64,000 nucleotides of DNA, taken from a virus. A program made the translations under genes and the position numbers. This document shows, in pieces, positions 3,728-49,965 of the stretch. The DNA lies in the IMG/VR virus record IMGVR_UViG_3300035183_001040, positions 1 to 64,000 of that record; one strand, given 5' to 3'. Position 1 is the first letter of the stretch. Every line of letters begins with the position of its first letter. The notes beneath the pieces were generated by a model. The model was given only the letters and a program-made list of their open reading frames with translations. It was not told the DNA's origin and ran no database searches.

Positions 3728-4192
3728 TCAGTATCCAAGCACTCTGCGCAGACGTTCGGCGCGCACTTCGAGTCTGTGAATCGTCCCTAACAGATCGACC
3801 TTGCGGACGCCTCGCGCGCGCATAGCTTTCTCCTTCGCCTTGTTCAGGCGCGCCACGGTTCTTTCGTACCGCAAGAACTCAAGCGTCTTGCGCCTCGCCG
3901 CCATGACTTCCGTCGGGGAAGTCCCGTTGCGGAAAACCACGTCGATGCCGTCCTCCACGTAGCGGCGCACACCGGCGCACTGAGCAGCGTGTTCTCTGCC
4001 GTTGCCGTATCCGAAACCGGGATTGCCGCATCCGAGGCATCGGGTCGTCGTGTCCGAAATGAATCCTCGAACAGGCGGCGCGGAAGGATAGGCCTTGTAG
4101 TAGCCGAGCCGGAACAGTTTCAGCCGAATTTCGGGAGACATCTCGGCCAGCGTCGAAAGCCCATCCCTGCCGTAGGATCTCAGATCCACCAT
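3728..4192 (-). CDS. Hypothetical protein with possible Zn-binding motif
   Basis: 154-aa ORF with CLGC...H...C. Confidence 0.55.
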   Translation of the reverse strand: MVDLRSYGRDGLSTLAEMSPEIRLKLFRLGYYKAYPSAPPVRGFISDTTTRCLGCGNPGFGYGNGREHAAQCAGVRRYVEDGIDVVFRNGTSPTEVMAARRKTLEFLRYERTVARLNKAKEKAMRARGVRKVDLLGTIHRLEVRAERLRRVLGY

Positions 4193-4407
4193 CGGTGTGC
4201 ACCCCTTGTCTTATGCGGTCCCGGCGGAATTTTTCGCTCGTGTGCCGAACGCGAGGAAAAATTCTCGCAGAACCTCGTCGAACTTCGTTTCGAACCCGCT
4301 CGAACCGGCAAATCGCCAAACCGCCGGAGACTCGAACCGCGCCTTCGAAAATTCTCGGAGAACGAAACCCGCGAGCGCGACGAAGTCGCGCCGCGGCTTC
4401 TGAGTGA

Positions 4408-4430
4408 GGTTCTATACTTCGTATAGAACC
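4408..4430. repeat. Perfect 10-bp inverted repeat GGTTCTATAC-TTC-GTATAGAACC beside an AT-rich tract
   Basis: Read directly; AT-rich run follows at ~4436-4480. Confidence 0.9.
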
Positions 4431-4487
4431 GAACGAAGAAGTTAATTTAAATCAACAAAATGCAAATCGAAAAGTTAACTGGCGCCG

Positions 4488-4530
4488 CTAAATCGCTTCG
4501 CGATTTAGTCGCTCCGGCGAAACTTGTCAA
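4488..4530 (-). promoter_or_regulatory. Promoter-palindrome element, copy 1
   Basis: Minus strand TTGACA(4530-4525)-N17-TAAATC; palindrome CTAAATCGC-GAA-GCGATTTAG at 4488-4508. Confidence 0.7.
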
Positions 4531-4988
4531 GGGACCTCCTCGGGGTCCCCGTCGATGGGACCCCGGAATTTCCCTTGTTTCGTGCGCGTTCTTTGATCCA
4601 CCGCAAGGTTTTGTACGATTTCTTTGACGCCGCCCCTCTTGCGTGCTAAGTCGCGAAGCGACTTAGTCGTTCCGCCGGAAATTCCGTTCGCCTGCGGCTT
4701 GACCTTCGACGAGGGCGATGCTAAGTCGCGAAGCGACTTAGTCGTTTTCCGGGAAATTCTGCGCGGCTGAAGTAGCCCGTAGACGTCGCGTTTCAGCTCC
4801 TGCAGCCAGAGAAGCCACGCATCCCGGTTCGGTGCGGGCAACGTCTGGACCTGCATTTGGGCGAGCGCGAAGACGTAAAACAGGTGCCTGCGCGCGAGCT
4901 CCTTTCGGGTTGGGCTCTTGGCGCTGCTCAGGCGTGCGACCGCGCCGTCGTTTGCCGGCGCGCGGTTCGGGAGCCTCCACGTGCTCAC
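4527..4988 (-). CDS. Hypothetical protein (C-terminal half runs through regulatory repeats)
   Basis: GTG start overlapping upstream stop; repeated TTKSLRDLA is simply the translation of the palindromes. Confidence 0.4.
   Translation of the reverse strand: MSTWRLPNRAPANDGAVARLSSAKSPTRKELARRHLFYVFALAQMQVQTLPAPNRDAWLLWLQELKRDVYGLLQPRRISRKTTKSLRDLASPSSKVKPQANGISGGTTKSLRDLARKRGGVKEIVQNLAVDQRTRTKQGKFRGPIDGDPEEVP
4624..4666 (+). promoter_or_regulatory. Promoter-palindrome element, copy 2
   Basis: TTGACG(4624)-N17-TAAGTC; CTAAGTCGC-GAA-GCGACTTAG at 4646-4666. Confidence 0.7.
4699..4741 (+). promoter_or_regulatory. Promoter-palindrome element, copy 3
   Basis: TTGACC(4699)-N17-TAAGTC; CTAAGTCGC-GAA-GCGACTTAG at 4721-4741. 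Confidence 0.7.
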
Positions 4989-42845: not shown

Positions 42846-42859
42846 GGCTTCGGACCTCC

Positions 42860-43116
42860 TTCGACTGGCTGCTCCTGGCTGGAAAAGGCGAAAGGCCCGC
42901 GAAGACCTTTTCGGGGTCTGCTCGCGGGCCCTATCTCCCGCGCAGCGGCGAACTGCGCGGGATGAAGCTCGGCGCCTGGCGCGCTGGTGCGCCCCAAGCT
43001 AACCGCACCGGAAGAAGCCCGAAAGTCGGGGAGGGGATGCCAGGCTCCGGACTCCCCCCGTGCGCGGCTACACGAATGATGCCGCAGACGCCGAAAGCCG
43101 TCAAGCAGGCGCGCGG
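42860..43116 (-). ncRNA. Structured non-coding region between sheath and tube genes
   Basis: Several stems (e.g. TCCCGCGCAG/CTGCGCGGGA, GGCCCGCGA/TCGCGGGCC); mismatches resolve as G-U on the minus strand. Confidence 0.5.
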
Positions 43117-45183
43117 CTACTGCTGCCGGCTGACGTTGAGCACGCCCTCGCCGATCTCCGCCTGCAGCACGATGAAGTCCGCCGTCGCGAGGGTTCGGAC
43201 GCGCACGATGAGCACGAAGATGCCCTTCGCTTCGAGCTCCTTCGTGTTGCCGCTCTTGTCGTCGACCTGGAAGTCAACGATGCGCTGAGCGGGCGGGTTG
43301 TTGGGCGAAAGCAGCTCGTTGAGGAACGCCACCGTTTCGCCCACCATCTGGTCTTTGAGCGCTGCGGTGAGGGGCAGTTTGGAGAACTGCACGAGGCGCT
43401 CGGCAAGACTGTCCTCGATGAAGTCCGCCATGCGCCTGCGGTTGATGTTCTTTTGGCCGGAAATCAGGCTCGTCGTGACGCCGGACTGGAAGATGGGACC
43501 GGCGGTTCGGTCGAACCGGACCGCGACCACGCCCTTGTCTCGAAGCTGGATGTACTCGCCGATGCCGAGGGCGCTCGGAGCAAGGCCGCGCTGCATGCCG
43601 AGCACTGGCGCCATGACTTCCGGCACCGGAGGGCCTGCCTGGCCCGGATTGCGCTCCGGAGGCAAGTTGGACATGACGCTCGCGAGCCAGAAGTCGGTCG
43701 AGTCGTCGAGAATTCCGTCGATCGTGGTGTTGACGTCTGCGGTCTTGAGCCGGAAGTTCACCGCCTCCGGAACGAACATCTTGACGCCCGGCCAAGCGTA
43801 GTCGACGCGCTCGCTTCGGTTCGCGCCTACGCCGGGGTCGGTGTCGCCGAGCACGGTGGTGAGCAAAACGGTGCCGAGGTCGGGCGAGAGCACAGCACTG
43901 CGCCCGATTCCTTGCGACGACGCGGTTTCGACGTGCGACTTGAGCTTGCTACGAATCACCGCGCTCTTGCGCGCCGCGACGAGGATGTTGACGGAACGCG
44001 CCGGGTCTGCGTCGGCGAGGAGGGCGTCGATGGCGGTGGCGTAGAGCGCGTCGATGCCTGCTGACGCCGGAGCGTTGATGCCTTGCACGGCGGCGGTGAA
44101 CTGGATGCCGCCACCTCCACCCGGCATGAGCCTGCCACCGAGCCCGCTCAGCACGTCCCAGGATGAGCCTGTTGTTGCGGGCGGGACCTCGCGCGGAGTG
44201 AGTTGCGTGCCTGCGGCCCAGGCTCCGCTGGTGTTTCCGCCGGTTGCGTTGGTGAGAGGACGAGAGGGAATCGTGTAGCCACCCACGTCCGCCGCGCCGT
44301 AGCCGCCGGGGGTCGAAGCGCCCGGGACGAGCACGGGAGCGCTGTCGGCGTCGCTCGCGAAGTGTAGGCGCCAGGGAACGTTGGCCGCGCCGGCGAAGGG
44401 AAAGTTTGCGCCGTTGAGCGCCTCGACCGTGATCGACGCGCCCGGAGCCGGGTCGGAAGCGACGCGGTAGGTGCCGGCGTCCGTGGACTTGGCGCCGGCG
44501 TTGTTGAAGCCGAGCACGAGGATGTCACCCTTGTGCGCGCCGAGGGTACCGTCAGGGCGTACGATGGTGGTCCAGTCGAAGCCGCCCGCTGCGTTGAACG
44601 TCTGCGTCGCTGCAGGAGCGCCCGCAACCGTCGCGCCGCCTGTCCCCGTGGCGATCGGCGAAAGCGCCGTGAAGACGACTCGCTTTGCCACGCGCAGTCG
44701 CGCAGGGCCGGAAAGAAACTCTCGGCCTGCCGCAATCGTGCCAGACTGGACAGGCACGACAGGCAAGGTGTTGGTCTGCGAAAGGCAGAGGGGGAGGTCG
44801 CGGAAGTACCGCACGCCCTTTGCGCTCGCGAGGTTGACGGGAACGCAGACGAGACGCGAAAAGCGCTTGTTTCGCAAGGCGACGAAGCCGTTGCCAAGAC
44901 TGCCGCCGAACTCGCCAATCGTCTCGTCGAAGCCGCCGAGCTTCTGAATGAGGTCGGCCCCTGAGAAGATTTCGACCGACTGAGGGTTGGTTGTGACATT
45001 GCCCGAGTCGTCGACAGAGGTCGCAAACGACATGTCCGCGAACTCTCCGACTACGCCCACGGTCCCGACCGATACCCCACGAACCGCGCCCGGGGGCGGC
45101 AGGTCGACGATGACCACGCCTTCGATTTGCGTGATCTGCTCGGTGCCTGGGAAGTACCCGAACCTGCGAATGAAGCCTGCCAC
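43117..45183 (-). CDS. Tail sheath protein
   Basis: GVVIVDL, GVVGEF, YAWP, INRRRMADFI, FQVD..SGNT, ADFIVL. Confidence 0.9.
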   Translation of the reverse strand: MAGFIRRFGYFPGTEQITQIEGVVIVDLPPPGAVRGVSVGTVGVVGEFADMSFATSVDDSGNVTTNPQSVEIFSGADLIQKLGGFDETIGEFGGSLGNGFVALRNKRFSRLVCVPVNLASAKGVRYFRDLPLCLSQTNTLPVVPVQSGTIAAGREFLSGPARLRVAKRVVFTALSPIATGTGGATVAGAPAATQTFNAAGGFDWTTIVRPDGTLGAHKGDILVLGFNNAGAKSTDAGTYRVASDPAPGASITVEALNGANFPFAGAANVPWRLHFASDADSAPVLVPGASTPGGYGAADVGGYTIPSRPLTNATGGNTSGAWAAGTQLTPREVPPATTGSSWDVLSGLGGRLMPGGGGGIQFTAAVQGINAPASAGIDALYATAIDALLADADPARSVNILVAARKSAVIRSKLKSHVETASSQGIGRSAVLSPDLGTVLLTTVLGDTDPGVGANRSERVDYAWPGVKMFVPEAVNFRLKTADVNTTIDGILDDSTDFWLASVMSNLPPERNPGQAGPPVPEVMAPVLGMQRGLAPSALGIGEYIQLRDKGVVAVRFDRTAGPIFQSGVTTSLISGQKNINRRRMADFIEDSLAERLVQFSKLPLTAALKDQMVGETVAFLNELLSPNNPPAQRIVDFQVDDKSGNTKELEAKGIFVLIVRVRTLATADFIVLQAEIGEGVLNVSRQQ

Positions 45184-47493: not shown

Positions 47494-47886
47494 TTAGTCT
47501 GGCACCTCTTCGAGGGCGACGCCCGCGATTTTCATCTTCTCGATGGCTCCCGAGCCGTACAAGGAGTCGCTCACGATGGCGCCTGCGCCGAGTTGAATCA
47601 TGCTCGCGCCCCAACTGATCGTTGTTGAGACCTTCACGCGGTACTTCTTCGCGGTCGCGGACTCCGCGGCTGCGGCCATCTTGCCAGGCGGCGGAAGGAC
47701 GGGTTCGACGGCCAGCTCGGCTTTCTTTTCTTGCGCGTCGTCGTCTCCGACCTTCTGCGGCGCAGCGCTGGGCTTCTGCGGCAGCGAGGAAGGCGGAGGC
47801 GCCTCGGGATTGTCATCCTGCGTGAGCGCCAAGGGGACGTCGAGCTTTGCAGATTCGAGCGGGTCTACGGATTTCTTCGAGGCCAT
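47494..47886 (-). CDS. Hypothetical protein (disordered N-terminus, small C-terminal domain)
   Basis: 130 aa, GGAG RBS. Confidence 0.6.
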   Translation of the reverse strand: MASKKSVDPLESAKLDVPLALTQDDNPEAPPPSSLPQKPSAAPQKVGDDDAQEKKAELAVEPVLPPPGKMAAAAESATAKKYRVKVSTTISWGASMIQLGAGAIVSDSLYGSGAIEKMKIAGVALEEVPD

Positions 47887-47894
47887 CTTGCTCT

Positions 47895-48550
47895 CCGTGG
47901 GACGGGGAAAAGTAGCGGCGACGCCGACCGCGGTTCAAACCAGGCTAAAAGCCCAAGGTTTACGAGCAGGGCTAGGCTCGATGCTGGGCGAAACCGCGGT
48001 CGGCGTCAGACGTGACCAGGCGCACCGAAACGGGCGAACCGTATCGGAAGCGGTGGTGCGTCCTTGGCACGGAGGCCTTCCGAAGAAGGCTCGCAGCCAT
48101 GCCGCCGAAAGCGGCCGCGGTTCCATGGCCCGAAGGCCAGGGTTTGCGACCGCTTACGGTACCGAGCCGCGAAACGCGAGGTTTCGCGCGAGGCTCTGCC
48201 GAAAAGACCTCGACCGAAGAGGTCTTCGGCGAATGCGCCCGGCACCTACAACCCGGCGGCTGGCAAGTGCTCACGGCCGAGGCCGAAAGCGAGCCGCAGG
48301 GGTGGCAGAGAGCACCTTTGCCGAGGTGCTCTGAAGGTTGGCGCGAAGAAGCCAAACCACTGCCGAAAAAAGCACTGACGGCAACAGGAGCACGTTGCCG
48401 CGTGCAAGGCCGCCCGAACGAATCGGAGCAGCCCCGGCGCAAACCGGCCGAGTCGAACGGCCAGGTCCGCAGGAAAAGAGCAGACCCCCGCGCAGCCCTC
48501 TGAGGAGAGGAGGAAGCTGAACTCGAAGGCTGCGCGGGAGTCTGCGCCAT
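47895..48550 (-). ncRNA. Large structured non-coding region downstream of the major capsid gene
   Basis: More than a dozen consecutive stems incl. 21-bp (48480-48500/48525-48545) and 16-bp (47920-47935/47992-48007); cUUCGg loops and G-U pairs on the minus strand; overlapping ORFs are not protein-like. Confidence 0.6.
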
Positions 48551-48555
48551 CGTGG

Positions 48556-49965
48556 TCACTCGCCGTGCTCGATGACGGCGAAGCGCTTGTAGCGGGCAAC
48601 ACCGCCCGTCGCACCGTCGGTGCGCAAGGGCCAGTCGCCGATGAACTTCCACGCCGTCGACACCATGTCCTGCAGGCGGTTGAGCGGTGCGCGGATGATG
48701 AGTTGAATGCGGTCGCTCATCACCTCGATGCCGTTGTTGACGATGTGCGGGTCCCCGACCTTGCCGAGCAACCCTGCTTCCGTGAGCAGGTTGGACAGGT
48801 CGGAGTAGTACTCGTAGATGCCGCCCTGCGCCGTGAACAGGATGCGGTGCACCTTGACGTTGTTCACGTTGTAGAGTTCGCCCGCGAACGGGTCGCGCTT
48901 GTCGAAGACCTGCGTTGCGTTGCTGCCGCCGTCTCCGACCACCGTACCGGCGCCGCCGACCGGGGCTCGGCTGTTGCGGAAGAAGACGGTGTTGAGAAGC
49001 TCGCCGATCGCGAACTTCTTGTACATGTAGTAGTCGGGCAGCGCGGTGAGCAGACGCTGGAACTCGTTGTCCTGGTATATCTTCGCCTGCGAGACCGGGT
49101 CGAGGTGCGCGTGGAAGCGTCCGTCTGGGTGCTCGGGCACGTTCTGTTGCCAGAAGTACGACACCGCGGCTCGAATGTCCGCGAGCGTTGGCAACGAGGA
49201 GCTCAAGATGGTGTCGATGCTGTTGCCACCGCTGACGCGGAAAATCTCCGTCCGGTCGACGGAGAAGACGTAGGCGCGGTCCGCGACGGTGACGGCAGCG
49301 TCGAGCGTGAGCGTTCCCGGCCCCGTCTCGTCTCCGGGCGTGTCCGGCGTGAAGCCGATGACGTTGCGCGTCACATCGTTGCCGCCCGAGAACGTGTGGA
49401 TGAGCAGCGGGTTGGTCGAGGAGACGAAATCGTACTGAACCGGCGAGCCGCCTGCGAGGTTCGGGTTGCGCGCGCGCGTGAAGCCGTTGAGGCGCTTGAC
49501 GCGAAGCGTGGTTGTGGCGGCTTGCGCACCGTCCGCCACCGTCCAGCCGCTCAGCGCTGCGTTGTACATCTGGTCTCGGACCTTGGTGTCGAGCGCGAGC
49601 GCGGCCATGAGGCCGAGTTGGTGGCAGTTGCGCAGGAACAGGTTCGCGATCGCCACCATGCTGGTCGGCATGTGCGTGTCGATCGCGCCGGCGTACTGCT
49701 GAAGCTGCGCGGTCCACTGCTCCTGCGGGAACGACGCGACGGCGGGCTCGTCGCCGGGTTTGAGCGGCGAGGCATCGACGGTCATGAGACCGGCGGCGGT
49801 GAACACCATGGTGTCACCGACACCTGCCGGCCACGGCTGCGGGGTTGCCTCGCCCCGGAACAGAATGCGCGGAAACAGCGCATCGTGGAACGCGCGCTCC
49901 AGGATGTTCTGCTGAACCAGCGCACGAATCTGAGGCGCTTGGAGAATGACGGAAAAGTCGGGCAT
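48556..49965 (-). CDS. Major capsid protein
   Basis: 469 aa after scaffold; GDTMVF, EQW..QLQQY, LGLMAALALD, FHAHLDP, PLNRLQ..STAWK. Confidence 0.85.
   Translation of the reverse strand: MPDFSVILQAPQIRALVQQNILERAFHDALFPRILFRGEATPQPWPAGVGDTMVFTAAGLMTVDASPLKPGDEPAVASFPQEQWTAQLQQYAGAIDTHMPTSMVAIANLFLRNCHQLGLMAALALDTKVRDQMYNAALSGWTVADGAQAATTTLRVKRLNGFTRARNPNLAGGSPVQYDFVSSTNPLLIHTFSGGNDVTRNVIGFTPDTPGDETGPGTLTLDAAVTVADRAYVFSVDRTEIFRVSGGNSIDTILSSSLPTLADIRAAVSYFWQQNVPEHPDGRFHAHLDPVSQAKIYQDNEFQRLLTALPDYYMYKKFAIGELLNTVFFRNSRAPVGGAGTVVGDGGSNATQVFDKRDPFAGELYNVNNVKVHRILFTAQGGIYEYYSDLSNLLTEAGLLGKVGDPHIVNNGIEVMSDRIQLIIRAPLNRLQDMVSTAWKFIGDWPLRTDGATGGVARYKRFAVIEHGE

Follow-up and report, generated by a model that had tools for sequence, protein, structure and literature searches.

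What lies in the 669 nt between the major capsid gene of this virus and the gene that follows it? The window, the whole 64,000-nt stretch of DNA that was analysed, is part of a 74.8-kb IMG/VR virus record, and its DNA is present in two microbial-mat metagenome DNA runs, perhaps from its sample of origin. On the minus strand the gene order is the capsid gene, the gap (47887-48555, from the capsid stop to the next start codon at 47884-47886), a small gene here called g130, and conserved head-completion genes, one of which is HK97-gp10-like. The landmarks that bound the gap are as follows.

48556-49965, minus strand: gene of the major capsid (major head) protein, 469 aa, lying upstream of the RNA; PHROG phrog_1357 'major head protein', E = 2.7e-08
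48556-48558, minus strand: capsid stop codon
47893-47896 and 47884-47886, minus strand: Shine-Dalgarno sequence GGAG and ATG of g130, read from the sequence
47494-47886, minus strand: g130, small head-region protein gene, 130 aa, next gene after the RNA

A Pfam search of the window's capsid protein gave no Mu-like_gpT hit. In the g130 family the N-terminus is rich in Pro, Ala and Glu and differs widely in length (about 20-270 aa), and the C-terminus is a conserved beta domain of ~50 aa, for which AlphaFold gave pLDDT values of 92-97 at residues 80-130. By this C-terminal domain a g130 homologue was recognised downstream of the capsid gene in 72 of 82 loci (tblastn and HMM searches), and also in L113, the most divergent relative discussed below. 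The protein belongs to no Pfam family, has no sequence match among solved structures and no significant fold match in the PDB; a structure search returned weak matches only, to uncharacterised phage proteins.

A preliminary description of the gap had proposed a densely structured, non-coding RNA read from the minus strand, and the structures that it listed were all found. Folding of the whole gap gave an MFE of -362.9 kcal/mol, compared with -287.7 +/- 7.3 for dinucleotide shuffles (z = -10.3), so that the structure goes well beyond chance; folded alone, the 5' part of the gap gave z = -7.4 and the 3' part z = -7.05. The 21-bp helix reported just after the capsid stop has arms at 48480-48500 and 48525-48545 that are 90% complementary, the perfect 16-bp helix joins 47920-47935 to 47992-48007, the stem followed by U6 is a hairpin at 48366-48406, and the two cUUCGg hairpins have their loops at 48131-48134 and near 48081. 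The reverse strand of the gap folds about equally well, and folding energy therefore cannot by itself fix the strand.

The non-coding status of the gap was likewise upheld. A 192-codon frame (47972-48550) has its ATG 5 nt past the capsid stop. Its GC content by codon position is flat (.63/.68/.67), whereas real genes here have GC2 of.42-.49 and GC3 of.74-.88, and tblastn of the frame against the relatives gave no match. Lower-GC relatives have open frames of about 140-143 aa in the same gap; these are mutually unrelated as proteins, and the nucleotide island that is conserved (below) falls in different reading frames in different loci. A longer frame of 581 codons (47972-49717, minus strand), which runs out of frame over the capsid gene and on through the gap, was rejected as an artefact of high GC content and is no gene.

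Relatives were collected by a capsid-protein search, followed by a capsid-profile search, of viral and metagenome contigs. There were 139 viral contigs with full-length capsid homologues, and the best 80 of the 139 were taken as loci. When the window's gap was compared by blastn with all of these loci, a single conserved island appeared at gap positions 404-446, about 90% identical in phages whose capsids are only 40-68% identical. The first ~400 nt of the gap showed no blastn similarity to any relative's locus. The idea of one ~670-nt RNA thus gives way to a smaller unit: what is conserved is a core of ~250 nt in the last part of the gap (47904-48159, minus strand), and the 5' ~400 nt are lineage-specific. 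From 5' to 3' the core consists of P1, the 5' strand of P2, zero to three variable hairpins, P3 with a pseudoknot, the 3' strand of P2, a U-run, the ribosome-binding site and the g130 start. Its elements in the window are these, all on the minus strand.

48109-48155: P1, a 10-bp stem (48146-48155 with 48109-48118); the only stretch conserved in primary sequence
48140-48145 and 48119-48125: P1 internal loop, AAACCC ... UGGAACC, nearly invariant and A/C-rich (AAACCC...YGGAACC in the family)
48126-48139: P1a, inner hairpin with a UUCG loop, within P1
48101-48106: P2 5' strand, GGCGGC, of the long-range closing helix; pairs with 47914-47919
48008-48100: variable hairpins in the junction closed by P2, including the second cUUCGg hairpin (MFE of the core)
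47920-48007: 3' domain, made up of P3, P4 and an H-type pseudoknot
47992-48007 with 47920-47935: P3, the 16-bp helix (inverted repeat I2)
47984-47987 with 47940-47943: P4, by inspection only
47976-47980 with 47963-47967: pseudoknot stem S1, by inspection in the window's subtype
47969-47973 with 47950-47954: pseudoknot stem S2, by inspection in the window's subtype
47914-47919: P2 3' strand, GCCGCU, directly behind the P3 3' strand
47904-47913: single-stranded tail ACUUUUCCCC; its conserved U-run is at 47908-47911

Folded by itself, the window's core gave an MFE structure that again contains P2, P3 and P1 with its internal loop. Across the family P1 is a stem of 5-10 bp, different in sequence in almost every phage, placed around GC-AAACCC, an inner hairpin of 4-6 bp, and YGGAACC-GC. 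In a MAFFT alignment of 21 sequences, 83.6% of the cells of P1 were paired, against 63.4% in shuffles, and two-sided changes were seen at 8 of the 10 outer pairs and at all 4 variable pairs of the inner hairpin; 0 of 500 shuffles and no slid register came near the observed values. A model of the P1 domain (R1) had a single hit in the window, at P1, with 59.6 bits.

P2 was found at the same place in 19 of 21 relatives. It has 4-7 bp, its 5' strand lies 6-13 nt past P1, its 3' strand abuts P3, and the helix spans 150-190 nt. Versions such as GGCAGC/GCUGCC, GAUGGC/GCCGUC, GGUGGC/GCCACC, GACAG/CUGUC, GUAGU/GCUAC and GAGGC/GCCUC keep the pairing, and a phage's own two strands pair better than strands swapped among phages in 5000 of 5000 permutations. 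The hairpins that P2 encloses vary in sequence and number zero to three in the relatives, with poorly conserved joining strands. The 3' domain is 88-95 nt long in most members, with a P3 of 12-16 bp and a pseudoknot of the form CCC-YAC-S2-GGG-AUA-S2'-G-UU. In a MAFFT alignment of 17 sequences it showed two-sided changes at 9 of 10 P3 pairs and at all 6 S2 pairs, and beat 500 of 500 shuffles. The window belongs with L001, L013 and L040 to a subtype in which, by inspection, S1 is CGAGC/GCUCG and S2 is AGCCC/GGGCU in the window and CGUC/GACG in L001 and L040. In P1, P2, P3 and the pseudoknot alike, compensatory changes exceeded every shuffle or permutation control; the homologues downstream of related capsids, with such changes in P1, P2, P3 and S2, define a new RNA family.

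Behind P2 comes AC(C) and a U-run, 0-4 nt past the P2 3' strand in most members and 3-6 nt long; 13 of 20 relatives have at least three U there, against an expectation of 14% taken from the other windows in these gaps (p = 3e-7), and in the other 7 of the 20 the run is missing. From the 3' end of P3 to the start codon there are 19-89 nt (median 28, 20 relatives). Another hairpin stands between the core and the ribosome-binding site in L025, L027 and L076.

Which strand is the RNA? Allowing G-U pairs lengthens P3 by 54 bp in total over 20 sequences and allowing A-C pairs by only 6 (p = 0.013, P1 included). Because an A-C pair on one strand is a G-U pair on the other, this difference makes the RNA a transcript of the gene strand, i.e., the minus strand, in agreement with the preliminary description. 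A comparison of sense and antisense MFE did not discriminate the strands (p = 0.7), nor did G-U and A-C counts on the MAFFT alignments (37 vs 29).

The 5' part of the gap is of a different kind. It contains these features.

48160-48555, minus strand: lineage-specific 5' hairpin array, ~400 nt, non-coding; z = -7.4, no sequence conservation
48472-48548, minus strand: T1, terminator-like; first hairpin, 21-bp stem with two G-U pairs, then UCUUUUCC (inverted repeat I1; MFE structure)
48366-48406, minus strand: T2, second terminator-like hairpin, then U6 (terminator scan)

At the position of this array the relatives carry 170-400 nt of their own, unrelated hairpins. T1 is placed right after the capsid stop, its U-run at gap position 79 behind a stable hairpin; in a separate scan for U-runs, that of T2 was found at gap position 185 with -18.8 kcal/mol upstream. 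Both T1 and T2 fit the pattern predicted for an intrinsic (Rho-independent) terminator, a GC-rich hairpin followed at once by a U-run. Terminator-like hairpins stand past the capsid stop and ahead of the core in about half of the members; the window has two. This pattern leaves the conserved core unexplained: with its A/C loop and pseudoknot it stands apart from T1 and T2. The companion proposal, co-transcription with the capsid mRNA, stood in part. The strand is the same, but the core is not simply the tail of the abundant capsid mRNA, since two terminator-like hairpins intervene. In members with such hairpins, which precede the core, the core would therefore lie on read-through RNA as the leader of the downstream genes.

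Extra DNA occurs in some of these gaps. In L008 an additional ORF between the capsid gene and the core (3900-4523) is an HNH endonuclease (Pfam PF01844, E = 2.9e-09), L047 has an additional 204-aa ORF there (3959-4570) with a Cys/His motif and no Pfam hit, and L113 has an extra ~750 nt between the capsid gene and the core. The ORFs inserted in L008 and L047 look like free-standing homing endonucleases for which the gap is a landing site. In all three phages the extra DNA is on the capsid side of the core, never between the core and g130.

How widespread is the core, and how constant is its place? Most loci have 414-669 nt from the capsid stop to the g130 homologue, and some, e.g., L002 and L026, have merely 28-80 nt. 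The core follows a homologous capsid gene (40-68% identity) in 36 or more of the 76 related phage contigs that are non-redundant. When these 76 loci were placed on a quick capsid tree, the 36 that bear the RNA, as judged by model or pattern, included the deepest branch; 13 loci, in about 3-4 clades, have no room for the RNA. Four of the other 27 (L040, L053, L057 and L061) were inspected; the versions that they bear have diverged so far that the 'invariant' P1 loop itself varies. The simplest history is that the element was ancestral and was lost several times. The RNA is missing in at least 3-4 clades that retain g130, and g130 expression therefore does not need it.

Model R1 and a second model, R2, of the 3' domain, hit the plus strand of the loci only, downstream of the capsid gene. 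An exact-pattern scan of IMG/VR returned 23 contigs; in all those examined a homologous capsid gene precedes the motif, with identities as low as 40% (L113). At capsid identities from 68% to 40% the RNA is without exception flanked by the capsid gene and a g130-family gene, and none of the 23 exact-pattern hits and about 40 model hits was away from that junction. Neither R1 nor R2 matched the gap between the sheath-like and tube-like genes of the window (42850-43120, minus strand, ~270 nt), which is also structured (z = -3.9) and terminates in a strong GC hairpin with a U-rich run, terminator-like, about 45 nt ahead of the next start. Blastn of the capsid-g130 gap against 50,697 phage records gave no match, and a capsid search in GTDB genomes found none.

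Two further observations concern hosts and bacterial chromosomes. The most divergent RNA-bearing relative (L110 / L113, capsid 40% identical) is a 39.7-kb contig binned into a Gemmatimonadaceae MAG, a possible host clue for part of the phage clade. The exact inner motif of P1, GCAAACCC-hairpin-UGGAACCGC, occurs in a chromosome contig of Alloyangia pacifica DSM 26894 (L109, 1636-1673), in a 5' UTR about 40 nt ahead of a DUF3072 gene and with no phage context. It was rejected as a general feature of that bacterial family, in which 141 genomes gave 4 weak, chance-like hits.

What might such an RNA do? Regulation of phage late operons is usually ascribed to simple terminators and translational coupling. 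We give about an even chance to a cis-acting leader and boundary element that sets the expression of the genes after the capsid gene. From the observed structure, covariation, strand, synteny and spacing we infer the following course. The element would act on the late polycistronic transcript. Polymerases that read past the post-capsid terminators would transcribe the core, which would then fold into a compact domain ending about 20-30 nt ahead of the start codon. The folded domain would set the output of g130, and probably also of the genes behind it, relative to capsid protein. It might do so as a translational operator held by a bound protein or a tertiary contact, by protecting the 5' end of the downstream mRNA, by partial termination at P2 and the U-run, or by a mix of these; the P1 loop and the pseudoknot could form a recognition surface, combined with the compact 5' domain.

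A role in cis is favoured because the next gene is always of the g130 family, because the 3' end of P3 lies at a median of 28 nt before the g130 start, because the U-run after P2 is enriched, because insertions always fall on the capsid side of the core, and because terminator-like hairpins precede the core in about half of the members. Several observations count against it. The P1 loop and the pseudoknot are clear of the Shine-Dalgarno sequence, and simple occlusion of the ribosome site cannot be general because the extra hairpin intervenes in L025, L027 and L076. At least 3-4 clades have lost the RNA and retained g130, and the constant synteny could reflect vertical descent alone. A closed domain that ends in a U-run is also typical of a stable small RNA with its own terminator. 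Further, the C-terminal domain of g130 has no recognisable RNA-binding fold, and the searches gave no lead to g130 as an RNA-binding partner of the core.

The same features can be read as those of a stable non-coding RNA that acts in trans, which we consider possible, though with a good deal of doubt. The core, perhaps together with hairpins upstream of it, would come free of the late transcript or be transcribed from a promoter of its own, ending at P2 and the U-run, and would work elsewhere: it might take part in virion assembly, act as a decoy that binds a host factor, or counter a defence system. It is an independently folding closed domain; its nearly invariant internal loop and its pseudoknot resemble recognition surfaces, and the conserved U-run behind the closing helix is as found at a terminator or at Hfq-type 3' ends. 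It is optional, like a moron, having been lost in several clades, and in some members it is loosely coupled to the Shine-Dalgarno sequence. However, the core was never found off the capsid/g130 junction in the 23 exact-pattern hits and about 40 model hits; nor do insertions ever part it from g130, and no promoter-like site was found. The more specific proposal, a new class of stable phage RNA made late and abundantly from the structural operon and acting in trans through the A/C loop and pseudoknot, is rather doubtful. Were it true, the RNA might serve head completion as a cofactor, or act as a decoy that captures a host RNA-binding or defence protein, and its fixed position would merely time and dose its synthesis. 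The preliminary description had offered a packaging RNA or a protein sponge; the leader and boundary role is preferred to either because the core strictly adjoins the ribosome-binding site of g130.

A purely transcriptional role is unlikely. At the capsid-to-neck boundary P2, P3 and the U-run would here form a branched intrinsic terminator or attenuator that halts a fixed share of the polymerases, over and above the effect of the simple terminators upstream. The U-run does follow the P2 3' strand by 0-4 nt in most members, the same gap often holds terminator-like hairpins, and attenuation after a capsid gene is a familiar theme, as at T-phi of T7. Terminators, however, require neither an invariant A/C internal loop nor a conserved pseudoknot, and a closing helix that spans 150-190 nt is ill-suited to fast co-transcriptional termination. 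The U-runs are short, at 3-6 nt, 7 of 20 members have none, and the window already has two conventional terminator-like hairpins upstream.

A riboswitch-like sensor, in which a small molecule held by the junction and pseudoknot would control access to the U-run or the ribosome-binding site, is very unlikely. There are conserved unpaired nucleotides in the P1 loop and the pseudoknot loops, and both the U-run and the ribosome-binding site are near; but the junction tolerates zero to three extra hairpins, its joining strands are poorly conserved, no alternative pairing is conserved across the members, the 'invariant' loop varies in more distant ones, and no Rfam riboswitch matched. Finally, that the gap holds no RNA element but a protein gene (47972-48550) or its decayed remnant, a DNA-level site, or chance GC-rich hairpins is judged refuted: the 192-codon ATG frame right after the capsid stop and the ~143-aa frames of lower-GC relatives speak for it, but the former has no codon-position GC signature, such frames are not kept as protein across lineages and the conserved island is read in varying frames, four helices show compensatory changes, the G-U asymmetry speaks for RNA over duplex DNA, and the folding z-scores are -7 to -10.

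The mechanism with the better support is one in cis, at the junction of the capsid gene and g130. A ~250-nt pseudoknotted RNA has been kept at the exact junction of capsid and next gene across capsids diverged to 40% identity, and such conservation suggests an RNA dedicated to setting the ratios of structural proteins; a new phage RNA that acts in trans is the less likely alternative. With its support from covariation, the secondary structure gives enough detail to guide mutagenesis, probing and structural studies.

How does the core compare with RNAs already known? At the gathering score, Rfam 15 gave 0 matches in the whole window and in 12 relatives, and at E <= 10 it gave only sub-threshold miRNA/sRNA noise, on the first hairpin. 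The absence of tRNA, tmRNA and intron hallmarks, remarked on earlier, was borne out by ARAGORN, which found 0 tRNA/tmRNA genes in the window, and by the Rfam models, including Intron_gpI, which had no match. A group I intron in the capsid gene was rejected, as capsid homologues end at the same residue with or without the RNA (in L002 and L026 the gaps are 28-80 nt).

By position, the closest catalogued family is Mu-gpT-DE, whose name presumably stands for 'Mu-like gpT downstream element' and which we take to be a conserved structured RNA downstream of a phage major head gene, its function unknown. To our knowledge it is the sole small family catalogued for the post-capsid slot. The likeness is one of position only, downstream of a major head protein gene: the Mu-gpT-DE model has 53 positions, and the RNA described here is about five times larger, with a long-range helix and a pseudoknot. 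At E <= 10 the Mu-gpT-DE model had no match over the 74.8-kb virus record. The motif comes from the survey of Weinberg et al. 2017 (PMC5737381), and its accession is RF03012 (PMC7657543). Among IMG/VR sequences a survey predicted 10,006 structured RNA candidates, all unnamed (PMC10690425). The core is a real, evolutionarily conserved structured RNA family, new relative to Rfam 15.

ROOL (RF03087) and GOLLD (RF01998) are, like the present RNA, large, highly structured and uncharacterised RNAs of phages and prophages. They are 580-800 nt long and lie near tRNAs, whereas the conserved unit here is ~250 nt, in a fixed intercistronic slot by a ribosome-binding site. The Rfam search covered both, together with phage pRNA, riboswitches, ribozymes and group I/II introns, and found no match, so the RNA belongs to no known Rfam family. 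Cis-acting RNAs of processive antitermination, such as put of HK022 and the Bacillus EAR (epsC) motif, the latter containing a pseudoknot, are also structured RNAs in long operons that could act on the transcribing polymerase. The epsC model had no match, and here the terminator-like hairpins are upstream of the core, beyond the reach of such an RNA.

T-phi, the intrinsic terminator and attenuator after the T7 major capsid gene, gene 10, resembles T1 and T2, strong hairpins with U-runs right behind the capsid stop, and this fits partial termination that would set the ratio of capsid to downstream products. The comparable hairpins are only in the non-conserved 5' part, however, and the conserved core downstream is far more elaborate. 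Pseudoknots that serve as translational operators beside ribosome-binding sites are known from the phage T4 gene 32 leader and from the E. coli rpsO/S15 and L20 systems. Like these, the core is a compact pseudoknotted domain a few tens of nt before a start codon (a median of 28 nt in 20 members), followed by a U-rich single strand. The pseudoknot here is buried at the end of a long arm, away from the ribosome-binding site, the sequences are not similar, and the RNA is inside an operon behind a terminator-like hairpin; by analogy with the operators, it may bind a protein. The likenesses to T4 gene 32, S15, L20 and T7 T-phi are resemblances, not memberships.
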